A DNA stretch of 64,000 nt from contig JBKPEA010000003.1 in assembly GCA_046728175.1 (NCBI GenBank), forward strand, positions 3,517 through 67,516, in the 5' to 3' direction. The notes beneath the pieces were generated by a model, which had not been told where the DNA came from, made no database searches, and saw nothing but the letters and a program-made list of their open reading frames with translations. Below, piece by piece: positions 5,720 to 50,729 of the stretch. Source of the DNA: Thermodesulfobacteriota bacterium (lineage in GTDB: Bacteria; Desulfobacterota; Binatia; Binatales; Binataceae). The stretch's first letter is position 1, and the number at the start of each line of letters is the position of its first letter. Made by a program: the position numbers and the translations under genes.

Positions 5720-5950
5720 TCAGATGCCGAGCAGCTTGCGCAGCTGGACCGGACTGAACCCGACCACCGACTGGTCGCCCACCCGAATTACAGGGACGGC
5801 GCGGAATCCAGTGTTGATAAGCTCGTCGCGGGCCGCGGGATCGTCACCAATGTTCCGTTCCACGAACGGAATGCCGTGCTGCAAGAGAAAGCTCATCGCG
5901 GCGTGGCACGCCGATCAGCCGTGGCTGGTGAAAATCGTTACTTGTGGCAT
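5720..5950 (-). CDS. glutaredoxin/NrdH-like thioredoxin-fold selenoprotein (UxxC), in-frame UGA at 5915-5917
   Basis: Hand translation: MPQVTIFTSHG-[TGA]-SACHAAMSFLLQHGIPFVERNIGDDPAARDELINTGFRAVPVIRVGDQSVVGFSPVQLRKLLGI*. The TGA occupies the first-Cys position of CxxC. GAGGA sits 5-6 nt before the ATG. selB and a Sec-type selD are in the same window. The gene is absent from the ORF track because both halves are under 60 aa. Confidence 0.7.
5899..5913 (-). other. candidate SECIS-like hairpin starting 1 nt after the UGA of the Grx-like gene
   Basis: The mRNA reads UGA-U-CGGCGU-GCC-ACGCCG, a 6-bp GC-rich stem with a 3-nt loop. It is shorter than, and sits closer to the UGA than, the fdhF-type SECIS, so this is only a candidate. 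Confidence 0.3.
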
Positions 5951-6325
5951 GTAAGTCCTCGGTTGGCACCGCCGCCTGGACAAATGCATCCGTGGCAGTC
6001 GCGGATCATTTTGCGAAGCGTGCGGCGCCGCCCTTGCAGGCGCACGATTTCATCCGTCATTTGGGAAAGCTTGGCCTCTGCCTTGCGGATAATGGGTCCG
6101 CATTCCCAGGTCGACTTTACTCCCAGCGTGAGCAGTTCCTGTATCTCACGCAGGGAGAAGCCCAACCCTTTCGCATCCTTTACAAACCGCAACCGGTCAA
6201 TCACCTCGTCCGAGTAGTTTCGATAGCCGGATACCGAGCGGCCGCCCTATCAAGCCTTTGCGCTCATAGAAGCGCAGGGTATCGACGCTGACCCCGGTCC
6301 TGTGCGCTAGCCGTCCAATCGTCAT
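5938..6325 (-). pseudogene. MerR-family (heavy-metal/redox-responsive type) transcriptional regulator with an apparent frameshift near 6236-6249
   Basis: From ATG 6325 the frame reads MTIGRLAHRTGVSVDTLRFYERKGLIG, then runs into a stop. A shifted frame continues RSVSGYRNYSDEVIDRLRFVKDAKGLGFSLREIQELL to RDCHGCICPGGGANRGLTCHK*. The span is 388 nt, not a multiple of 3. The listed ORF 5938-6204 is the C-terminal part only. Confidence 0.7.
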
Positions 6326-6334
6326 TGGTTTACA

Positions 6335-6366
6335 ACCATAAACCTTGGAGTATAGTCCTGGGTCAA
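6335..6366 (-). promoter_or_regulatory. MerR-type promoter: TTGACC, 19/20-nt spacer containing an imperfect dyad, then TTATGG/TATGGT
   Basis: The minus strand reads cTTGACCcaggactatactccaaggTTTATGGTtgtaaaccaATG. The dyad is ACCCAGGACT-AT-ACTCCAAGGT (6363-6342), symmetric at 7 of 10 positions. The -10 element lies about 10 nt from the merR-like ATG. Confidence 0.5.
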
Positions 6367-40640: not shown

Positions 40641-41111
40641 TTAGCCCTGTTGCTTGGCGATACTATCGAACCGCTTTTTCATTTCGTCGGCCGACACTTC
40701 CTCGATGCGAGTCGCCAGAAACCAGGAATGGCCGAACGGATCGCGGATTTGCGCACTGCGGTCTCCGTAGAACTGATCTTCGGGCGCGCGCTGTGAGGTT
40801 GCGCCGGCGGCCAGGGCGCGTTGGTAGACCGCATCGACGTCTTCGACCAGGAGATGAATCGAGACGGGTGGGCGTTCCGCACCCTTGGGACCGAAGTAGC
40901 CCATTTCCGGATACTCATCGGAGAGCATTATGGTGCCGCTGCCCAGCTTGAGTTCGGCGTGACCGATGCGGCCGCTTCCAGGTTCGGCAAAGCGCATCGT
41001 CTCCTTCGCGCCGAAGACGTGCTGGTAGAACTCGAGCGCCTTGGTCGCGTTCGCGACGCACAGGTATGGCGTCACTACGCTGACTCCCTCGGGAATTGGT
41101 TTTGCTGCCAT
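40641..41111 (-). CDS. VOC-family protein, PhnB-like (sixth VOC domain of the array)
   Basis: VTPYLCVANATKALEFYQHVFGAKE...HAELKLGS...YGDRSAQIRDPFGHSWFLA. AAGGAG lies upstream of ATG 41111. A TTG at 41162 is an alternative start. Confidence 0.8.
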   Translation of the reverse strand: MAAKPIPEGVSVVTPYLCVANATKALEFYQHVFGAKETMRFAEPGSGRIGHAELKLGSGTIMLSDEYPEMGYFGPKGAERPPVSIHLLVEDVDAVYQRALAAGATSQRAPEDQFYGDRSAQIRDPFGHSWFLATRIEEVSADEMKKRFDSIAKQQG

Positions 41112-41171
41112 GAATGATTCGCTCCTTTGCGAAGCACGGCGCGCATTGCGACGGCCGTGCAACCGCTCGCA

Positions 41172-41717
41172 TTACTGGTCCGCGTTTTCTTTGAACCAGG
41201 ACCGCTCCCGGTTGCGCATTTCCCGGGCCGGTACCGACTCGATTTTCGTTGAGAGCAACCACAGATGGCCGAACGGGTCCTGCAATCTACCCGCGCGTTC
41301 GCCGTAGAACTGGTCCTGGACCGGAAAGATTACTTTCGCGCCTGCCTCAATCGCCCGCTTCGCGATCGTATCGACGTCGTTGACTTCCAGATGAATGATC
41401 ACCGGAGAGCCACCCAGTGCTGAGGGGCTGGTCGCGCCGACGCCTTCCCATTCGTCTGCGAGCAGTATCGAAGCCTCACCGATTTTGATTTCGCAGTGCG
41501 CGATTCGGCCGTCGACGCTTTCCAGGCGAACCACTTCGATTGCGTCGAACGCGTTGCGGTAAAAGTCGACCGCCCGGGCCGCGTCCTTGATAATCAGGTA
41601 TGGCGTCGCGCGCGAGCCGGCCGATTGCGCAGGTTGAGAGGCTCTCGTCGCCGGTCTGGCCCGAAGCGCCTTGTGGCGTTTGGAAGCGGCTGGCCGTCTG
41701 CGCTTCGCCTTCTTCAT
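41172..41717 (-). CDS. VOC-family protein, PhnB-like, with a highly basic N-terminal tail
   Basis: MKKAKRRRPAASKRHKALRARP tail, then ATPYLIIKDAARAVDFYRNAFDA...YGERAGRLQDPFGHLWLLS. No alternative in-frame start exists downstream. Confidence 0.8.
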   Translation of the reverse strand: MKKAKRRRPAASKRHKALRARPATRASQPAQSAGSRATPYLIIKDAARAVDFYRNAFDAIEVVRLESVDGRIAHCEIKIGEASILLADEWEGVGATSPSALGGSPVIIHLEVNDVDTIAKRAIEAGAKVIFPVQDQFYGERAGRLQDPFGHLWLLSTKIESVPAREMRNRERSWFKENADQ

Positions 41718-41721
41718 CGTT

Positions 41722-43569
41722 CTAACGCCGCACGTCCTTGAGCGGCGTGGCGATGTACCAGATGTGGCCGAACGGATCTTTTACGCCGCCGCAGCGGTCG
41801 CCCCATTGCTTATCTGCCATCGGATCGACCATCTCGGACCCTGAGTCGAGCGCGCGCTGGAAAGCGGCGTCCGCATCGGGGACATACACGTAGAGATGCA
41901 GAGGGGTGCCGCCGAGCTGACGTGGAGTGCGCACATAGCCTTTGGCGACGTACTCCGCGGCATGCGGCATGGTTGCATCGCTCAGCATCACGCGCGTGCT
42001 ACCAATCGCAAGCTGGACATGACTTGCCTTGCCGTGCTCGACGTCGCGATGCAGCTCGGTCGCTTCGAACACCTTCTTGTAAAAGTCGGCGGCTGCTCCA
42101 GCATCTTCGCAGTACATGAACGGCATGATCGCGGCCGGTGAGGTGGGCGCGGCTTGCGGCACCGTCTGCGCGCTCACCGCCGCCCGTTTCTCGGGATGCT
42201 GGTGGGCTGCGATGTACCAGACGTTGCCGAAGGGATCGGTCACGCCGCTGGCCCGATCACCGTAGGATTCATCGCGCGGTGCGTAGAGCGATTCTGCTCC
42301 GGCCCGCAGTGCGCTCTGATAGGTAGCATCGGCATCCGCAACATAGAGGTGCAGGGCCGGCGGCATCGGCGGATACTCTCCGTGTGCCTCGCCCATCGCG
42401 ACTATCGAGTCGCCGATCCTGAGCTGTGCGTGCTGTACGACGCCCTGCTTATCGGCATGGAACTCAGCTTCCTCGGCACCGAAAGCCTCCTTCAGGAAGT
42501 CGATGAGCTTGGCTGCGCCCTTCGGATGGAGATAGGGAGTTACCGAACGCAGTTCCGGCGACCACGGTTCGGCCGTTTCCAGGCGCTTTGCGAGATACCA
42601 ATGATTGCCGAAGGGGTCTCTTATGCTCGCCTCGCGATTCCCGTAGTCCTGGTCCTGCGGACCACGGATCGACTCGGCGCCGGCCTCGAGGGCACGTTGG
42701 TAGGTCGCATCCACATCGTCGACGAACAGCCAGATCGCGGTCGGGTTCGGTTTGAATCGCTGGTTCGCATCGGCCAGTTCCACGACCGAGCCCGACACTC
42801 TCATCTCCGCATGGCCGATGGTTCCGTCCGGCTGATTGACCCGCATGACTTCCTCGGCGCCAAACGCACGCTTGAGGAAGTCGATGAGCTGTGCGGCGCC
42901 ATTCACCTGCAGGTATGGCGTGATGCTGTGATAGCCTTCGGGCTTTGGAACGGATTTGGCTTTTTCGGCAGCAACCGAGCGATCCCAATCCGCCTTCATC
43001 TGTTCGGGGGTGACATCGTGGTGGTGGGTCGCGACCATCCACACGTGCCCGAACGGATCGACGAACTTGCCGCGCCGGTCGCCATACGGGTAATCCTGCG
43101 GCGCTTCCAGCACTTTAGCGCCGCCCCGCTCGGCGCGCCGCGCGAAAGCATCGATGTCGTCGACATACAGATGCACGAATGCGGAAGAACCGCCGAGCGA
43201 ATCGGGACTCAGGTTGAAGTAGCGCAGCTCTTCCTCCGCGATCATGATGGGCGCATCGCCGATTTTGATTTCGGCATGCGCAATATGCCCGCTCGGATCC
43301 GCCATCCGCGACAGCTCAGTGGCGCCGAACGCACGCTTGTAGAAATCGATCGCACGCGACGCATCGCGAATCATCAAGTAGGGGGTCGCGATGCCGTGGC
43401 GGCGGCGCGCCGTGAGGGCGGCCTTGGAGGAGGTCGGCAGGGCGCTCTTTTTCAGGCTGGCCTTTAGCTGCATCTTGAACTCCTGGCGCGGCAGCCCGCG
43501 CAGCTCGCCCGCGATTTCGAGCAGCGCGGCGACGCCCGAATTCACGCGCGGGGGCCTGGCGTCTGCCAT
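41722..43569 (-). CDS. four tandem PhnB-like VOC domains preceded by a ~60-aa leader; possible ECF-sigma partner
   Basis: Four repeats of the (T/M)P(Y/F)(L/M)...DF(Y/L)K.(A/V)F(G/E)A...H(A/V)(E/Q)...DPFG(H/N).W pattern. ATG 43569 has GGAGG 5 nt upstream. A GTG at 43665 (listed start) would overlap the sigma gene by 17 nt. Confidence 0.8.
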   Translation of the reverse strand: MADARPPRVNSGVAALLEIAGELRGLPRQEFKMQLKASLKKSALPTSSKAALTARRRHGIATPYLMIRDASRAIDFYKRAFGATELSRMADPSGHIAHAEIKIGDAPIMIAEEELRYFNLSPDSLGGSSAFVHLYVDDIDAFARRAERGGAKVLEAPQDYPYGDRRGKFVDPFGHVWMVATHHHDVTPEQMKADWDRSVAAEKAKSVPKPEGYHSITPYLQVNGAAQLIDFLKRAFGAEEVMRVNQPDGTIGHAEMRVSGSVVELADANQRFKPNPTAIWLFVDDVDATYQRALEAGAESIRGPQDQDYGNREASIRDPFGNHWYLAKRLETAEPWSPELRSVTPYLHPKGAAKLIDFLKEAFGAEEAEFHADKQGVVQHAQLRIGDSIVAMGEAHGEYPPMPPALHLYVADADATYQSALRAGAESLYAPRDESYGDRASGVTDPFGNVWYIAAHQHPEKRAAVSAQTVPQAAPTSPAAIMPFMYCEDAGAAADFYKKVFEATELHRDVEHGKASHVQLAIGSTRVMLSDATMPHAAEYVAKGYVRTPRQLGGTPLHLYVYVPDADAAFQRALDSGSEMVDPMADKQWGDRCGGVKDPFGHIWYIATPLKDVRR

Positions 43570-43648
43570 GGTCGCCTCCACCGCCTGATCGAGCTGCTCG
43601 GTCGGGCTTCGCCTGGCCGTTTGGCTGCGATCGGCCCTTTGCCTTCGC

Positions 43649-44227
43649 TTAGCCATTCTGGTCACCCATCCGCAGGCGCAGATTCTGCAGCCCGCGAAAT
43701 TGAAGCTGCTTCACGGCGCCCTCGGTGCGCTTAAGTTGCTGGGCAATTTCGCGGATACTCCTTTCCTCGGCGAAACGCAGAGTGATTACGCGGCGCTGGT
43801 CGGAGGGCAGCCGGTCAACCATCCGGAACAGGCGCGCGCGGTTTTCGATTTCTTCCCAACAGGGCTCCCGGGGATCATCGGTGGGATCGAGCCGAGGTTG
43901 CCGCGCGGTTTTTTGCGACCGATCCACGATCTCGTTGCTTGCGATTTTGTAGAGCCATGCCGCGAACGGAACCCCGCGCCATTCGAAACGGCCGATATTC
44001 TTAAGCGCCAAATGAAATACCTCGGCGGTCAAATCCTCGGCTTCGTGGCGGTCTCCCACGCGGCGGACGATGAAAGCGTAGACGCGCTCGAAATTGCTTT
44101 CGTAAAGTTCGGCGAAGCGGCGCGAGTCGCGCTGCGCCGCCTCGATTTGGCGGCGTTCGTCAGCCGCCGCCGGGCTGACCTTCAATGCCGATGCCCTGCG
44201 CACCATCGTCCCAACGGTATAAACCAT
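43649..44227 (-). CDS. ECF-type RNA polymerase sigma-70 family factor
   Basis: Region 2 (FAELYESNFERVYAFIVRRVGDRHEAEDLTAEVF) and region 4 (LPSDQRRVITLRFAEERSIREIAQQLKRTEGAVKQLQFRGL). Confidence 0.9.
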   Translation of the reverse strand: MVYTVGTMVRRASALKVSPAAADERRQIEAAQRDSRRFAELYESNFERVYAFIVRRVGDRHEAEDLTAEVFHLALKNIGRFEWRGVPFAAWLYKIASNEIVDRSQKTARQPRLDPTDDPREPCWEEIENRARLFRMVDRLPSDQRRVITLRFAEERSIREIAQQLKRTEGAVKQLQFRGLQNLRLRMGDQNG

Positions 44228-46425: not shown

Positions 46426-47499
46426 TTAGACGAGCTCCAGCGGTAAATCGCGGCGCGGTTCGACGCGGCCGACGATCGCGCCGTCGGTACATCCTGCCTT
46501 ATGCAGTTCAGCGAGCATCGCGACGGATTGCGATTCGGGTACCGAAATCAACAGTCCGCCCGAGGTTTGCGGGTCGAAAGCCAGCGAGACCATCTCCTCG
46601 GACACTTCGTCGGAGATTTTAACGTGCGGCGCGTAATATTCGCGATTGCGGGTGCCGCCGCCCGGGATCATTCCGGCGCGCACCTGTTCCAGCGCGCCCT
46701 GCAACAGCGGCAGGTCCGATTCCTCGAATACCAGGGTCACGTTGCTGCCGTCGGCCATCTTGAAGGCATGACCCATGAGGCCGAAGCCGGTCACGTCGGT
46801 TGCCGCATGCACCTCGTGGTTCAGCATGAGCGTCGCGGCACCGGCATTGAGCTGGACCATGGAATTGACGGCACTGGTGTAGTGCTCGGGGTTGAGCGCA
46901 TCGCGTTTGAACGCGGTCATCAGAACCCCAGTGCCCAGAGCCTTGGTCAGGAGCAGCGCGTCACCTACCCGGGCGCCGACGTTGCGTACTATCCGGCGCG
47001 GATCGATCACGCCGGTCACCGCCATCCCAAACTTGACTTCGTCGTCGGCCACGCTGTGCCCGCCCACCACGACCACGCCCGCTTCGCGTGCTTTTTCGGC
47101 ACCCCCGCGCAAAACCTCGGCCAGCAGTTCGCGGGGCAGCCCCGCTTGCGGCCAGCAGACGATATTCAAGGCACTCACCGGTCGTCCGCCCATCGCGTAA
47201 ACATCGGAGAGCGCGTTGGCCGCGGAAATCTGCCCATAGGTGTGCGGGTCGTCGACGACCGGCGTGAAGAAATCGACTGTACTCACGATGGCCAGGTCGT
47301 CGCGCAGACGAAACACTCCCGCGTCGTCGCCGGTGGCGATGCCGACCAGCAAATCGGGATGGCTCGGCAGGTCAAGCCGCGCCAGTACGTCTGCAAGGTC
47401 CGCCGGACCGAGCTTGCCGGCTCAACCCGCGGCTTTGCAGCGTGCCGTCAAGCGCACCAATTCCGTGCGCGACGGATTGTTGTCCTTGTCCCTGGACAT
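46426..47499 (-). CDS. selD: selenide, water dikinase (selenophosphate synthetase), selenocysteine-containing form; in-frame UGA at 47422-47424
   Basis: From ATG 47499 (GGAGGG SD): MSRDKDNNPSRTELVRLTARCKAAG-[TGA]-AGKLGPADLADVLARLDLPSHPDLLVGIATGDDAGVF. The G-U-x-G-K motif aligns with the E. coli SelD GAGC(17)GCK loop. The listed ORF starts at TTG 47352 and lacks this catalytic loop. Confidence 0.85.
47393..47421 (-). other. candidate SECIS region directly 3' of the selD UGA
   Basis: The mRNA reads UGA-GCCGGCAAGCUCGGUCCGGCGGACCUUGC. Two alternative 5-bp stems are possible (GCCGG/CCGGC, or GCAAG/CUUGC with a GGU-containing loop). Not validated against a model. Confidence 0.3.
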
Positions 47500-47533: not shown

Positions 47534-49465
47534 TCAGCCCGTGCGAGCGCGCAGCCGTCGCTGGTCGCCGACGCGGGTCGTCACCCCGCTGTGATCAAAA
47601 TAGTCGAGCAACGCGATCGCAAATTTGCGCGATGCGCCCAGCAGATCGCGGTAAATCGCTGCGCTGATTTCCGTATGCGTGCCCAAATAGTCGACCAATC
47701 GGGTGCGGGCCGCATCGAGCGCGGTCCGGTCGAAGTAAAGCTCCGCCGCAATCTTAACCACCCGCCCCTCGCGTTCCATCGCCGCGAGCACGGTGCGGAG
47801 TTGCGCCGCAGCCCCGGGCCCGAGCCCTAGCTGTTCGGCCAGCTGCTTCAAATCGGGCGGTTGAAACTCCGCGCGAGTGAGCGCCGTTTCCACCCGGGCG
47901 CCGAGCTCCCCCGCGTCACCGCCCAGTGTGACCTTGTGACTCTTGACGCGCAGCAGATTCTCTTCGCGAACGATCTCGGCCTCGCGCCCGATACGATCGA
48001 CGATCGCGCGAAACGCGCGCGCGCTGACTTCATAGGGCAATCGTGTACGCAGGGATTCCATTTCGAGTCCGGCAGAGAGCGGCGCCGATTGGTGATGTGC
48101 GCCCAGCGTGGCAAGGGTGAATTTTTTAAGCTCCTCCCACTTGGAGCGGGTGGTAAAACCTTCCTCATCGCCCATCGAGAGCTTGATAAACCGGGTATCG
48201 GTTAACACACCTTCGATCTCCGCGAGTGGACGATTCATCAGGCAGGCGAGGCGGCCGGCGGGCAGGGCGAGACTTTCCTGGAGGTTGAGGAGTGCCTCAA
48301 CCGCCTCTGCGCCCAGCGATCCGCGGATGATGGCCAGGCGGTCGCGGTAGGCAGCCAGCGGCTTGCGCGAGCGGCGCGCGATCGGATTCAGGACGATTCC
48401 GCCGCCGAGCGTGCGGACGTTGGTTTCATCGCGAATGACGAACCGATCGCCGAACAAGAGCACCGCCGGTTGCTCGGTAACGATTTGCACCAGCCCGCGT
48501 TCCTTGGGCGGTAACTCGTCGCGCTCCTCGAGCAGAATCACCCGGCCCAAGATTTCGCTGGTCCCGACAAACAGGCGCAGCCGCGAATGGTTCTTGAGCG
48601 GGCGCTTGGCGGCGGGACGAATTTCCAGCCACGCGTCGAAGCGCGAGGTCGCGAAGTCCAAGCGGTCATCAGCCAGCACCTGCCCGCGCCGGAGTTCCAC
48701 CCGCTCCGGCCCGGCTAGGTTCAGCGCCACCCGCTGGCAGCGTCCCGCGCTCGGTACCGACTCGGAGTGGACCTGAACCCCACGCACGCGGACCTCTTCG
48801 CCGCCGGGCAAGACACGCAACTTCTGCCCGACGCGGACCTCCGCGCCCATCGCGGTGCCGGTTACGATGGTACCGTGGCCCTTGATTGCGAAGGCGCGGT
48901 CTAGCGGCAGGCGAAAGACTCCGGTTGCGCGGCGCGCATCAAAGCCAACCAGCTGACGAGCCATCTCGCTGCGAAGTTCCTCGAGTCCCGAGCCGGTAAC
49001 CGACGAGACCGCGATGATCGGCGCGGTGGCGAGTTGGGTACCGTCCGCCAGCAGCTCGATTTCGTCGCGCACTTCCTTCAGTCGATCCGCATTTACCAGG
49101 TCGGCCTTGGTGACCACGAAAATACCGCGGCTCACGCCGAGCAGGTGGAGGATGTCTAGATGCTCCTCGCTCTGCGGCATGACGCCATCGTCGGCGGCCA
49201 CGGTAAAGAGGACCAGATCGATTCCATGAGCGCCTGCGAGCATGTTGCGAATGAACCGCTCGTGACCGGGAACGTCGACCACCCCCGCCCGGGTGCCATC
49301 GGGCAGCGTGAAAAAGGCGAAGCCGAGATCGATTGAAATTCCGCGCTCCTGCTCTTCTTTGAGACGATCGGTCTCCTGGCCGGTGAGTGCGCGAATGAGG
49401 GCGGTCTTGCCATGGTCGATATGACCGGCGGTGCCGATGATCGCGTGGGCCACGGCAGATGGCAT
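47534..49465 (-). CDS. selB: selenocysteine-specific translation elongation factor
   Basis: [29 protein letters not shown] (G1), DVPGHERF (G3) and TKADL (G4), then a long winged-helix C-terminal half. 644 aa from ATG 49465. The 85-aa upstream extension in the listed ORF is R/P-rich and not SelB-like. Confidence 0.9.
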
Positions 49466-49682
49466 CGGGTGGAGCTTATCGCGGCGCACCGAATTTGGAG
49501 AAATGGTCGCACCCAACGAGCCCGCAACACGCCGCAGCCTTCTACACCAGAAAGACCTTCGAACACGGCTCGGCGGATACCTCTCCCGCTGCGATCCACC
49601 AAGACCCGGGTGCCCCGTAATCGGAGGCTTCGCCTGTGATCTTCGAACCGTGTAGACTTCCGTGTTTCGAGGTGGCTTAGGC

Positions 49683-50729
49683 GTGAAGACCGGGATTATC
49701 GGCGCCCGCGGGGCAGGCAAATCGACGGTCTTTCACGCGCTGACCGGACTGCCGCCGATTCCGGGCACGGCGGAAGGCAAAGCTCGCGGGCGGCCGGGAC
49801 AGATCAAGCTCGCCGATCCGCGGCTGGATTTCCTGGAAACGAGCTATGGGTCCAAAAAAAAGATTCCGGTCGAGCTAACGGTGCTCGACTTTGCGCCCAA
49901 TCCAAAGGAGCAGAAGGAGGGTGCCGCGCTCGACGTCAGCCTGATTCCGCTGATTCGCGACCTCGACGCGCTGCTCATCGTCATCGCACAATTTGGCGGG
50001 CTGAATCGGGACCTCACGCCGACGGTCGAGAGGATCGAGAGCGAGCTGGTCTTCGCCGATTTCGATCAGGCCGAGCGGCGGAGGGAGCGGATCAAGAAAG
50101 ACCGCAGTGCGAGCGATTTTGAAAAAGCCGCGCTGGAGAAAGTCATCAAGTGGCTGGAAGATGGAAAGCCGCTGCGGCTGATGGAGCTTTCGGCGCAGGA
50201 GCTGCAGACCTTTTCGAGCTTCGGCTTTCTGTCCCGCAAACCGGCGCTCGCAGTCGTAAACTCCGAGATGGAAGCGGGAGCGTCCGCGCTCACGAAGGCT
50301 GAACGCGACGCCATCCATGCGCGCGGCCTCGAGGTGTTCCGCCTGGCCGCCGCTTTCGAGTCGGAGCTGTGGGAGCTCGACGCGGCCGGGCAAAGCGAGA
50401 TGCTGCGTGAAGCCGGCCTGGAGGCGCCCGCGCGCGATCGTCTGATCACGGCGCTGTACAAGCACTTGGGGTTGATCACCTTCTACACCGCGGGCGAGCC
50501 GGAGGCGCATGGTTGGTCGCTGCGGCGTGGCGAAACCGCGCTGGAAGCCGCCGCGGAAATTCATAGTGATATCGCACGCGGATTCATCCGCGCCGAAGTG
50601 GTCAGCTATGAAGACTTCGCGGTGCTCAAGTCGGATGCCAAGGTCAAGGAGGCGGGAAAGCTGCGGCTGGAGGGCAAGGACTACGTGATGCGCGACGGCG
50701 ATATCATTCACATTCGCTTCAAAGTCTAG
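49683..50729 (+). CDS. ychF: YchF/OLA1-like P-loop GTPase/ATPase
   Basis: VKTGIIGARGAGKSTVFHALTG, and a C-terminal TGS/DUF933-like FYTAGEPEAHGWSLRRGETALEAAAEIHSDIARGFIRAEV. GTG 49683 is preceded by GAGGTGG. A GTG at 49662 is an alternative start. Confidence 0.8.
   Translation: MKTGIIGARGAGKSTVFHALTGLPPIPGTAEGKARGRPGQIKLADPRLDFLETSYGSKKKIPVELTVLDFAPNPKEQKEGAALDVSLIPLIRDLDALLIVIAQFGGLNRDLTPTVERIESELVFADFDQAERRRERIKKDRSASDFEKAALEKVIKWLEDGKPLRLMELSAQELQTFSSFGFLSRKPALAVVNSEMEAGASALTKAERDAIHARGLEVFRLAAAFESELWELDAAGQSEMLREAGLEAPARDRLITALYKHLGLITFYTAGEPEAHGWSLRRGETALEAAAEIHSDIARGFIRAEVVSYEDFAVLKSDAKVKEAGKLRLEGKDYVMRDGDIIHIRFKV

Follow-up and report, generated by a model that had tools for sequence, protein, structure and literature searches.

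Sec-glutaredoxin (PF00462, UxxC), a small redoxin with selenocysteine (Sec, U) in its redox site, counts as one of the prokaryotic selenoprotein families with experimental support (PMC13188914) and turned up ten times in a survey of the Sargasso Sea (PMC1088965). Grx1 of Clostridium oremlandii (Clostridium sp. OhILAs), known as cGrx1, is a native selenoprotein with the active site U-P-H-C; it acts as reductant for selenoprotein MsrA, and the form used for crystallography has cysteine (Cys) in place of Sec (Protein Data Bank (PDB) entry 7c10; PMC7642778). The subject of the present analysis is a small redoxin gene on the minus strand of a 64-kb stretch of DNA (the window, taken here at its full length of 64,000 nucleotides (nt)) from a soil bacterium of the family Binataceae. 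The gene is split by an in-frame UGA at 5917–5915, and the evidence as a whole makes it highly probable that this UGA is decoded as Sec, so that the locus is predicted to hold a hidden selenoprotein gene. The elements of the gene are as follows:

5720..5950, minus strand: redoxin gene, predicted selenoprotein of 76 codons with a glutaredoxin fold and a U-S-A-C site (sequence, PF00462, orthologues, fold)
5950–5948, minus strand: start ATG of the redoxin gene (read directly)
5956..5960, minus strand: Shine–Dalgarno-like GAGGA, 5 nt 5′ of the ATG (read directly)
5915..5917, minus strand: in-frame UGA, predicted Sec codon, codon 12 and first redox residue (orthologue column)
5722–5720, minus strand: terminal TGA of the redoxin gene (read directly)

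The conceptual product is MPQVTIFTSHG-U-SACHAAMSFLLQHGIPFVERNIGDDPAARDELINTGFRAVPVIRVGDQSVVGFSPVQLRKLLGI, with the C-terminus ...RKLLGI. The initial annotation of the window had described this minus-strand frame with its ATG, GAGGA and internal TGA, and the sequence reads exactly so. The gene had also been said to be absent from the list of open reading frames (ORFs), which is the case, because the longest conventional ORF at the locus (5720..5896) has 58 amino acids (aa) and the list has a 60-aa cut-off. Orthologues with TGA at codon 12 (TGA forms) carry GAGGA, or its variants GAGGT, GGGGA, TAGGA or GGAGA, at the same site before the start codon. A standard terminator scan found no intrinsic terminator 3′ of the redoxin gene.

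With Cys placed at codon 12, the protein matches the Pfam family Glutaredoxin (PF00462) end to end (profile positions 1–60 of 60; 58.8 bits, cut-off 22.9, E = 6e-16). The AlphaFold model of a natural Cys homologue, P0001, which is 92% identical to the window protein, has a predicted local distance difference test score (pLDDT) of 93.4 and the topology beta-alpha-beta-alpha-beta-beta-alpha, with residue 12 at the N-terminal end of helix 1. The complete small thioredoxin/glutaredoxin fold anticipated from the sequence is borne out by these two results. The attribution to glutaredoxin/NrdH/YruB-like proteins stands for glutaredoxin; membership of the NrdH or YruB families was rejected, since the scores lie under both curated cut-offs (NrdH-redoxin model TIGR02194, the best NCBIfam score, 66.2 bits against 85.75; YruB-family model TIGR02196, 61.9 bits against 88.55). 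The model of UXX-star glutaredoxin-like selenoproteins, NF041212, gave 46.4 bits, below its cut-off of 66, and the U-x-x-stop motif of that family is absent, the redoxin having no C-terminal UGA.

Sequence and structure searches of the PDB both place 7c10, "dithiol cGrx1", first (phmmer E = 1e-14; Foldseek template modelling (TM) score 0.94 against the P0001 model, root-mean-square deviation 0.9 Å, 40% identity over 75 columns), followed in Foldseek by the NrdH-redoxins of E. coli (1h75) and M. tuberculosis (4hs1), with TM scores of 0.86–0.87. Both cGrx1 and the window protein have Sec in the homologous column as the first residue of U-x-x-C, their lengths are 75–84 residues, and both are devoid of the C-terminal extension of classical Grx3-type proteins. 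They differ in the active site (U-S-A-C here, U-P-H-C in cGrx1) and in phylum (Binatota here, Firmicutes there); the redoxin gene here lies behind a MerR-family regulator, and no msrA was seen among its neighbours. NrdH and YruB-type proteins share the small size and the fold, but the motif of NrdH is C-V/M-Q-C, and there is no nrdI/E/F neighbour in the window or in the syntenic contigs. The GFRAVPV and VGFSP stretches of the redoxin resemble the GFRQLPV and WSGFRP regions of E. coli NrdH. We know of no NrdH that is a selenoprotein, and in the literature searched, papers naming a selenoprotein together with NrdH contain, as far as titles and abstracts tell, incidental co-mentions only. The window gene thus belongs to an already known kind of selenoprotein: cGrx1, the characterised protein nearest to it, is a validated Sec-glutaredoxin, and the system as such is not new in kind.

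A direct comparison is offered by codon 12 of the relatives. A search of 5.8 billion proteins yielded 87 relatives, about 70 of which are full length (75–76 aa), up to 92% identical to the window protein and without exception equipped with G-C-S/A-A-C. About 16 others have exactly 58 (or 55–60) residues and begin at an internal Met, as would be expected of a gene caller confronted with a TGA. Codon 12 was scored in 91 loci, namely the window and 90 loci fetched from genomes and metagenomes; L031 was too short to be scored.

TGA at codon 12: 16 scored loci (15 distinct coding sequences, window included)
TGC at codon 12: 64 scored loci
TGT at codon 12: 10 scored loci
TGG at codon 12: 1 scored locus

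The redox column of the homologues is thus occupied by a Cys codon (74 loci) or by TGA (16 loci), as the selenoprotein proposal had foreseen, and Cys12 is invariant in the protein alignments. The TGA forms are the closest relatives of the window gene (79–96% identity) and stem from independent assemblies and metagenomes, among them NCBI metagenome-assembled genomes (MAGs) labelled Candidatus Binataceae. In each of the 15 distinct TGA forms, 11 open and conserved codons (MxxVTIFTNHG) lead in frame to the TGA, and the motif around codon 12 is MxxVTIFTNHG-U-[SAT]ACHAA. These upstream codons contain 13 extra synonymous codons against 10 amino-acid variants, a sign that the region is translated. 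Chance does not account for TGA recurring at one column of 15 distinct orthologous sequences whose two flanks are conserved.

In neighbour-joining trees, the Cys forms L003, L007/L024 and L005/L017 are nested among the TGA forms or are sister to them, and all the deeper branches are Cys forms. This branching implies a putative origin of Sec from Cys, followed by apparent reversions to Cys; the trees rest on 228 nt only, and the number and direction of the Sec/Cys switches are uncertain. The same pattern of Sec/Cys exchange has been described for bacterial redox proteins (Zhang et al. 2006, PMC1794560). One relative, L042 (Ga0182024_10000037), has TGG (Trp) at the redox codon (...FTNTG-W-SACH...); TGG is one mutation from TGA or TGC, and this locus reflects either inactivation of the copy or an error of sequencing.

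Three hairpins were considered as candidates for the selenocysteine insertion sequence (SECIS) downstream of the UGA:

5899..5913, minus strand: H1, hairpin directly after the UGA, probably not the SECIS (pair conservation)
5872..5908, minus strand: H2, extended stem-loop, SECIS candidate (single-sequence folding, RNAalifold)
5853..5871, minus strand: H3, hairpin with a perfect 8-bp stem, UUCCGUUC/GAACGGAA, and a G-U-G loop (RNAalifold, recoding controls)

In H2, an internal loop separates the lower stem from an upper stem that contains a bulged nucleotide; the apical loop lies 22–23 nt past the UGA. H3 is adjacent to it, and its loop is 51 nt past the UGA. Both were recovered by single-sequence folding and, independently, by RNAalifold on the 15 TGA forms, where 97% of the cells across H2 and H3 are paired (96.4% in H2 and 98.3% in H3, compared with 87.8% in H1). 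The initial annotation had pointed to a 6-bp hairpin immediately after the UGA and had named SECIS-compatible structure in orthologues as a test. Conserved RNA helices do exist past the UGA of the TGA forms. The 6-bp hairpin itself, H1, is present in the window, but it is the least conserved of the three, with two of its six pairs broken in 5–6 of the 15 sequences. It starts 1–2 nt after the UGA and competes with the lower stem of H2, and stability shuffles lend it no support. Structure within about 15 nt of the UGA is expected to be unwound by the decoding ribosome with the UGA in its A site. H1 was rejected as the SECIS on account of its broken pairs, the lack of shuffle support and its closeness to the UGA. 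A scan of the whole window against Rfam at gathering thresholds gave no match, either to a curated SECIS or to any other RNA family.

The stability of the RNA was compared with that of synonymous recodings of each sequence, in which the protein was kept and codons were drawn according to the usage of the family or of the window genome. The z-scores obtained, given as means for the TGA forms, were:

Whole region, family codon usage: TGA forms −2.5; all 71 Cys forms −0.15
Whole region, window-genome codon usage: TGA forms −2.2; nested Cys forms −0.6
H2, family codon usage: TGA forms −1.95; closest Cys forms −1.4; distant Cys forms +0.5
H2, window-genome codon usage: TGA forms −1.75; closest/nested Cys forms −1.1
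H3, family codon usage: TGA forms −3.3; closest Cys forms −0.7; distant Cys forms +0.1
H3, window-genome codon usage: TGA forms −2.9; closest/nested Cys forms −0.65

It is H3 that separates TGA from Cys forms best. The difference can also be followed at single codons:

Pro28 as CCG: 15 of 15 TGA forms; 8 of 17 Cys forms with the same residue
Arg32 as CGG: 15 of 15 TGA forms; 7 of 24 Cys forms with the same residue
Val30: GTG in 13 of 15 TGA forms; GTC in 47 of 53 Cys forms with the same residue

The pairing base at Pro28 is lost in three of the four distinct nested Cys sequences, and H3 as a whole is lost on reversion to Cys while H2 persists. Synonymous diversity in the TGA forms is 0.17 over codons 13–33, compared with 0.32 upstream and 0.40 downstream; the Cys clades have no consistent dip of this kind. 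A structure after the UGA exists, is conserved and exceeds synonymous recodings specifically in the TGA forms.

The window also carries two genes of the machinery for Sec:

47534..49732, minus strand: selB, Sec-specific elongation factor (limits are those of the open frame, with the SelB match starting at about 49441; domains and TIGR00475)
about 46426..47499, minus strand: selD, selenophosphate synthetase of Sec type (TIGR00476 and in-frame UGA)

The presence of both had been part of the initial proposal, and both score above their curated cut-offs (354.6 bits against 242.25 for the SelB equivalog TIGR00475; 374.5 bits against 125 for TIGR00476). The selB frame comprises the GTP_EFTU, SelB beta-barrel and SelB winged-helix 2 and 3 domains, and selD lies directly downstream of it. 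An in-frame UGA of selD at 47424–47422 (minus strand), in the motif ...CKAAG-U-AGKLGPADL, is followed by a canonical hairpin like that of the bacterial SECIS (bSECIS), GGUCC-GGC-GGACC, with a G-G loop that begins 17 nt past this UGA. As selD is itself of Sec type, the organism depends on UGA recoding to make selenophosphate. The N-terminus of selD would also be truncated by standard ORF calling. A scan for further TGA-split genes in the window gave only selD as a convincing case; the scan is noisy in GC-rich sequence and missed even the UGA of the redoxin, so others may exist. An altered code, with UGA read as sense throughout the genome, was rejected: TGA is the commonest ordinary stop in the window, ending 19 of 41 long ORFs, and it terminates the redoxin gene too.

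A number of observations, concerning the RNA, the machinery and the state of the operon, weigh against the prediction of Sec decoding. Covariation is nearly absent, with one pair changed on both sides and columns 94% identical; the classical test is uninformative because the TGA-form sequences are too similar. The structural case rests on comparisons of RNA conservation, codon bias and recoding, all of which ignore shared ancestry. H2 is kept in the closest Cys forms also. The consensus bSECIS has a loop of 3–9 nt, an upper stem of 4–16 bp, a G in the first two loop positions, a spacing of 16–37 nt and a minimum free energy (MFE) of at most −7.5 kcal/mol (PMC13188914). H2 agrees with this model in spacing (22–23 nt) and in MFE (about −9), but its loop is CUUU, with no G, in the main clade, GCUU in the RNAalifold register and GACUUUA in L021–L023. 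H3, with a hairpin energy reaching −10 kcal/mol and a mean sub-window MFE of −9.1, agrees in everything but spacing, which is 51 nt instead of 16–37 nt. Strict enumeration at spacings of 16–37 nt found no uninterrupted hairpin that is conserved and has all the bSECIS features. The locus resembles the surveyed Sec-glutaredoxins in its PF00462 fold, UxxC site, widespread Cys homologues and stem-loop downstream of the UGA; it differs from them in that the published Sec-glutaredoxin SECIS has a G-containing apical loop 16–37 nt from the UGA, a combination that none of the conserved hairpins here presents in full. No tRNA, tRNA-Sec included, was found by ARAGORN in the 64-kb window, and no selA was seen within it.

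The atypical form of both conserved hairpins relative to the consensus leaves a small chance that read-through of the UGA inserts another residue in place of Sec or alongside it. This could be Cys, by way of the Sec machinery, or Trp or Cys by near-cognate suppression, and in vivo the protein would act chiefly as a thiol enzyme. Under selenium limitation, Sec codons can receive Cys, and the Trp codon of L042 also fits such a reading. However, with selB and a Sec-dependent selD in the window, the cell must decode UGA as Sec for selenophosphate. The TGA stands exactly at the nucleophilic redox position, where Sec is catalytically advantageous, as in cGrx1. Finally, an RNA structure specific to the TGA forms is maintained, which leaky suppression would not need.

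The remaining points against Sec decoding concern decay of the operon, of which the redoxin gene is the downstream member:

5938..6325, minus strand: gene of a merR-family regulator, frameshifted (alignment with intact 130-aa orthologues)

The 3′ end of merR overlaps the redoxin gene by 13 nt. Compared with the intact orthologues, merR of the window has a 5-bp deletion near 6237–6241, which puts the helix-turn-helix and the dimerisation/Cys part into different frames. In L015, the nearest relative, merR has independently lost 1 bp about 10 nt from the deletion of the window. The window redoxin, for its part, bears three private amino-acid changes (N9S, S23L and A47T). Given the frameshifted merR and the private changes of the redoxin, some decay of this merR–redoxin operon is conceivable. 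The deletions in the window and L015 could be real losses of the regulator or assembly errors.

These features, together with the fact that TGA is one mutation from TGC, would fit a TGA that is a nonsense mutation, or a miscalled TGC, in one genome's decaying operon, but such an origin is very improbable, and the orthologues go most of the way to refuting it. The 15 distinct sequences with TGA come from metagenomes and MAGs independent of one another and reach down to 79% identity; all the TGA forms are full length, in frame and constrained on both sides of the TGA, and the structured RNA past the UGA is specific to them. The regulator is intact in five other aligned orthologues (L014, L012, L004, L001 and L019), and most of the other TGA forms whose sequence extends far enough upstream give full-length MerR matches, among them those five and L002. 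The redoxin gene of the window is intact although its upstream regulator is frameshifted.

Equally improbable is a true stop at the UGA, giving either a product of 58 residues from Met19 or an 11-residue leader peptide with re-initiation: NCBI and JGI records do contain the 58-aa ORF as a gene call, and Met19 is conserved in many family members, but a product starting there would be without strand beta-1 and the entire redox motif and could not form the modelled fold, codons 1–11 and 13–18 are conserved like the rest of the gene in the TGA forms, Met19 is replaced in the TGA forms L004 (R) and L018 (T), and no ribosome-binding site precedes it (the sequence there is GCCACGCCGCG-ATG).

If the UGA is decoded as Sec, SelB with Sec-tRNA(Sec) would be recruited by the mRNA structure just past the UGA, within the coding sequence, and Sec would be inserted without termination. 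The recruiting element may be the upper part of H2, the adjacent H3 with its G-U loop, or both. By homology with cGrx1, the redoxin, which is of the dithiol type, would act as a thiol/selenol-disulfide oxidoreductase: the selenolate of residue 12 would attack the oxidised substrate, Cys15 would resolve the selenenylsulfide, and a reductase or a low-molecular-weight thiol would regenerate the redoxin.

The redoxin gene stands second in a conserved operon of two genes, of which the MerR-family regulator gene is the first. Of the 85 loci whose upstream sequence is long enough, 78 have a MerR orthologue as the next gene upstream in the same orientation, Cys forms included. The intact 130-residue regulator best matches MerR, CueR, ZntR and CadR (E = 1e-32 to 1e-26), that is, the heavy-metal MerR clade; its scores against the four equivalog models (90.6–109.9 bits) are all below the respective cut-offs of 143–168. 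In 75 orthologues Cys77 and Cys112 do not vary, and most have a third Cys at 115 or 116; the spacing matches that of the thiolate metal-sensing subgroup. A SoxR-type [2Fe-2S] motif was considered and rejected: the window regulator has CxxCxC, but the third Cys is unconserved. Upstream of merR, the following element was noted:

6335..6366, minus strand: putative MerR-type promoter/operator, TTGACC-20 nt-TATGGT (direct reading; inference)

This site looks like a MerR-type long-spacer promoter, TTGACC-N20-TATGGT. It includes a dyad, ACCnnGGA-N6-TCCnnGGT, and is nearly invariant in seven orthologues; a standard sigma-70 scan with spacers of 16–18 nt did not report the proposed promoter with its 20-nt spacer. 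Some 10 nt separate its end from the merR ATG (6325–6323), and from this position the merR transcript would be leaderless or nearly so. As the second cistron behind a MerR regulator with invariant Cys77 and Cys112, the redoxin is probably stress-induced. The synteny is observed directly, and the inducing signal would be a soft metal or thiol-reactive stress. Being consistently paired with a MerR-type thiolate sensor, the redoxin seems to answer a specific stress.

A further, doubtful proposal is that the locus combines a non-canonical, two-part SECIS with a MerR/Sec-redoxin pair serving as a dedicated stress module. In its first part, H3, 51 nt out, may bind SelB, and H2 may be a folded spacer that brings H3 near the ribosome. 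In its second part, the pair may be induced by soft metals or electrophiles and deploy a selenolate, not a thiolate, on demand. A stress module of this kind, if true, would mean that expression of the selenoprotein is regulated and coupled to metal sensing, and that it switches between Sec and Cys across Binatia.

The prediction of Sec at codon 12 amounts mainly to a correction of annotation: the proteins of a Binataceae clade are deposited as a 58-residue "glutaredoxin family protein", and the real product is predicted to be a 76-residue selenoprotein. The correction bears on selenoproteome censuses of soil bacteria and of the candidate phylum Binatota. In the literature searched, judging by title and abstract, Binatota and selenocysteine occur together only in a study of methane in a sponge microbiome. 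With one gene of 228 nt available as 15 TGA forms and as several Cys revertants nested among them, the locus is also a compact natural test set for the rules of SECIS function.

The merR–redoxin pair is flanked by mlaEFD on one side and by genes for DUF6285, a phosphotransferase (APH) and an acyl-CoA dehydrogenase on the other; the flanking genes are on the opposite strand and are syntenic in relatives. Elsewhere in the window, and unrelated to the redoxin, there is a cluster of glyoxalase/VOC-fold genes (41172–43710 and 40641–41171, minus strand), including one long frame with four VOC matches; the cluster is adjoined by genes for an O-methyltransferase and an extracytoplasmic function (ECF)-type sigma factor.

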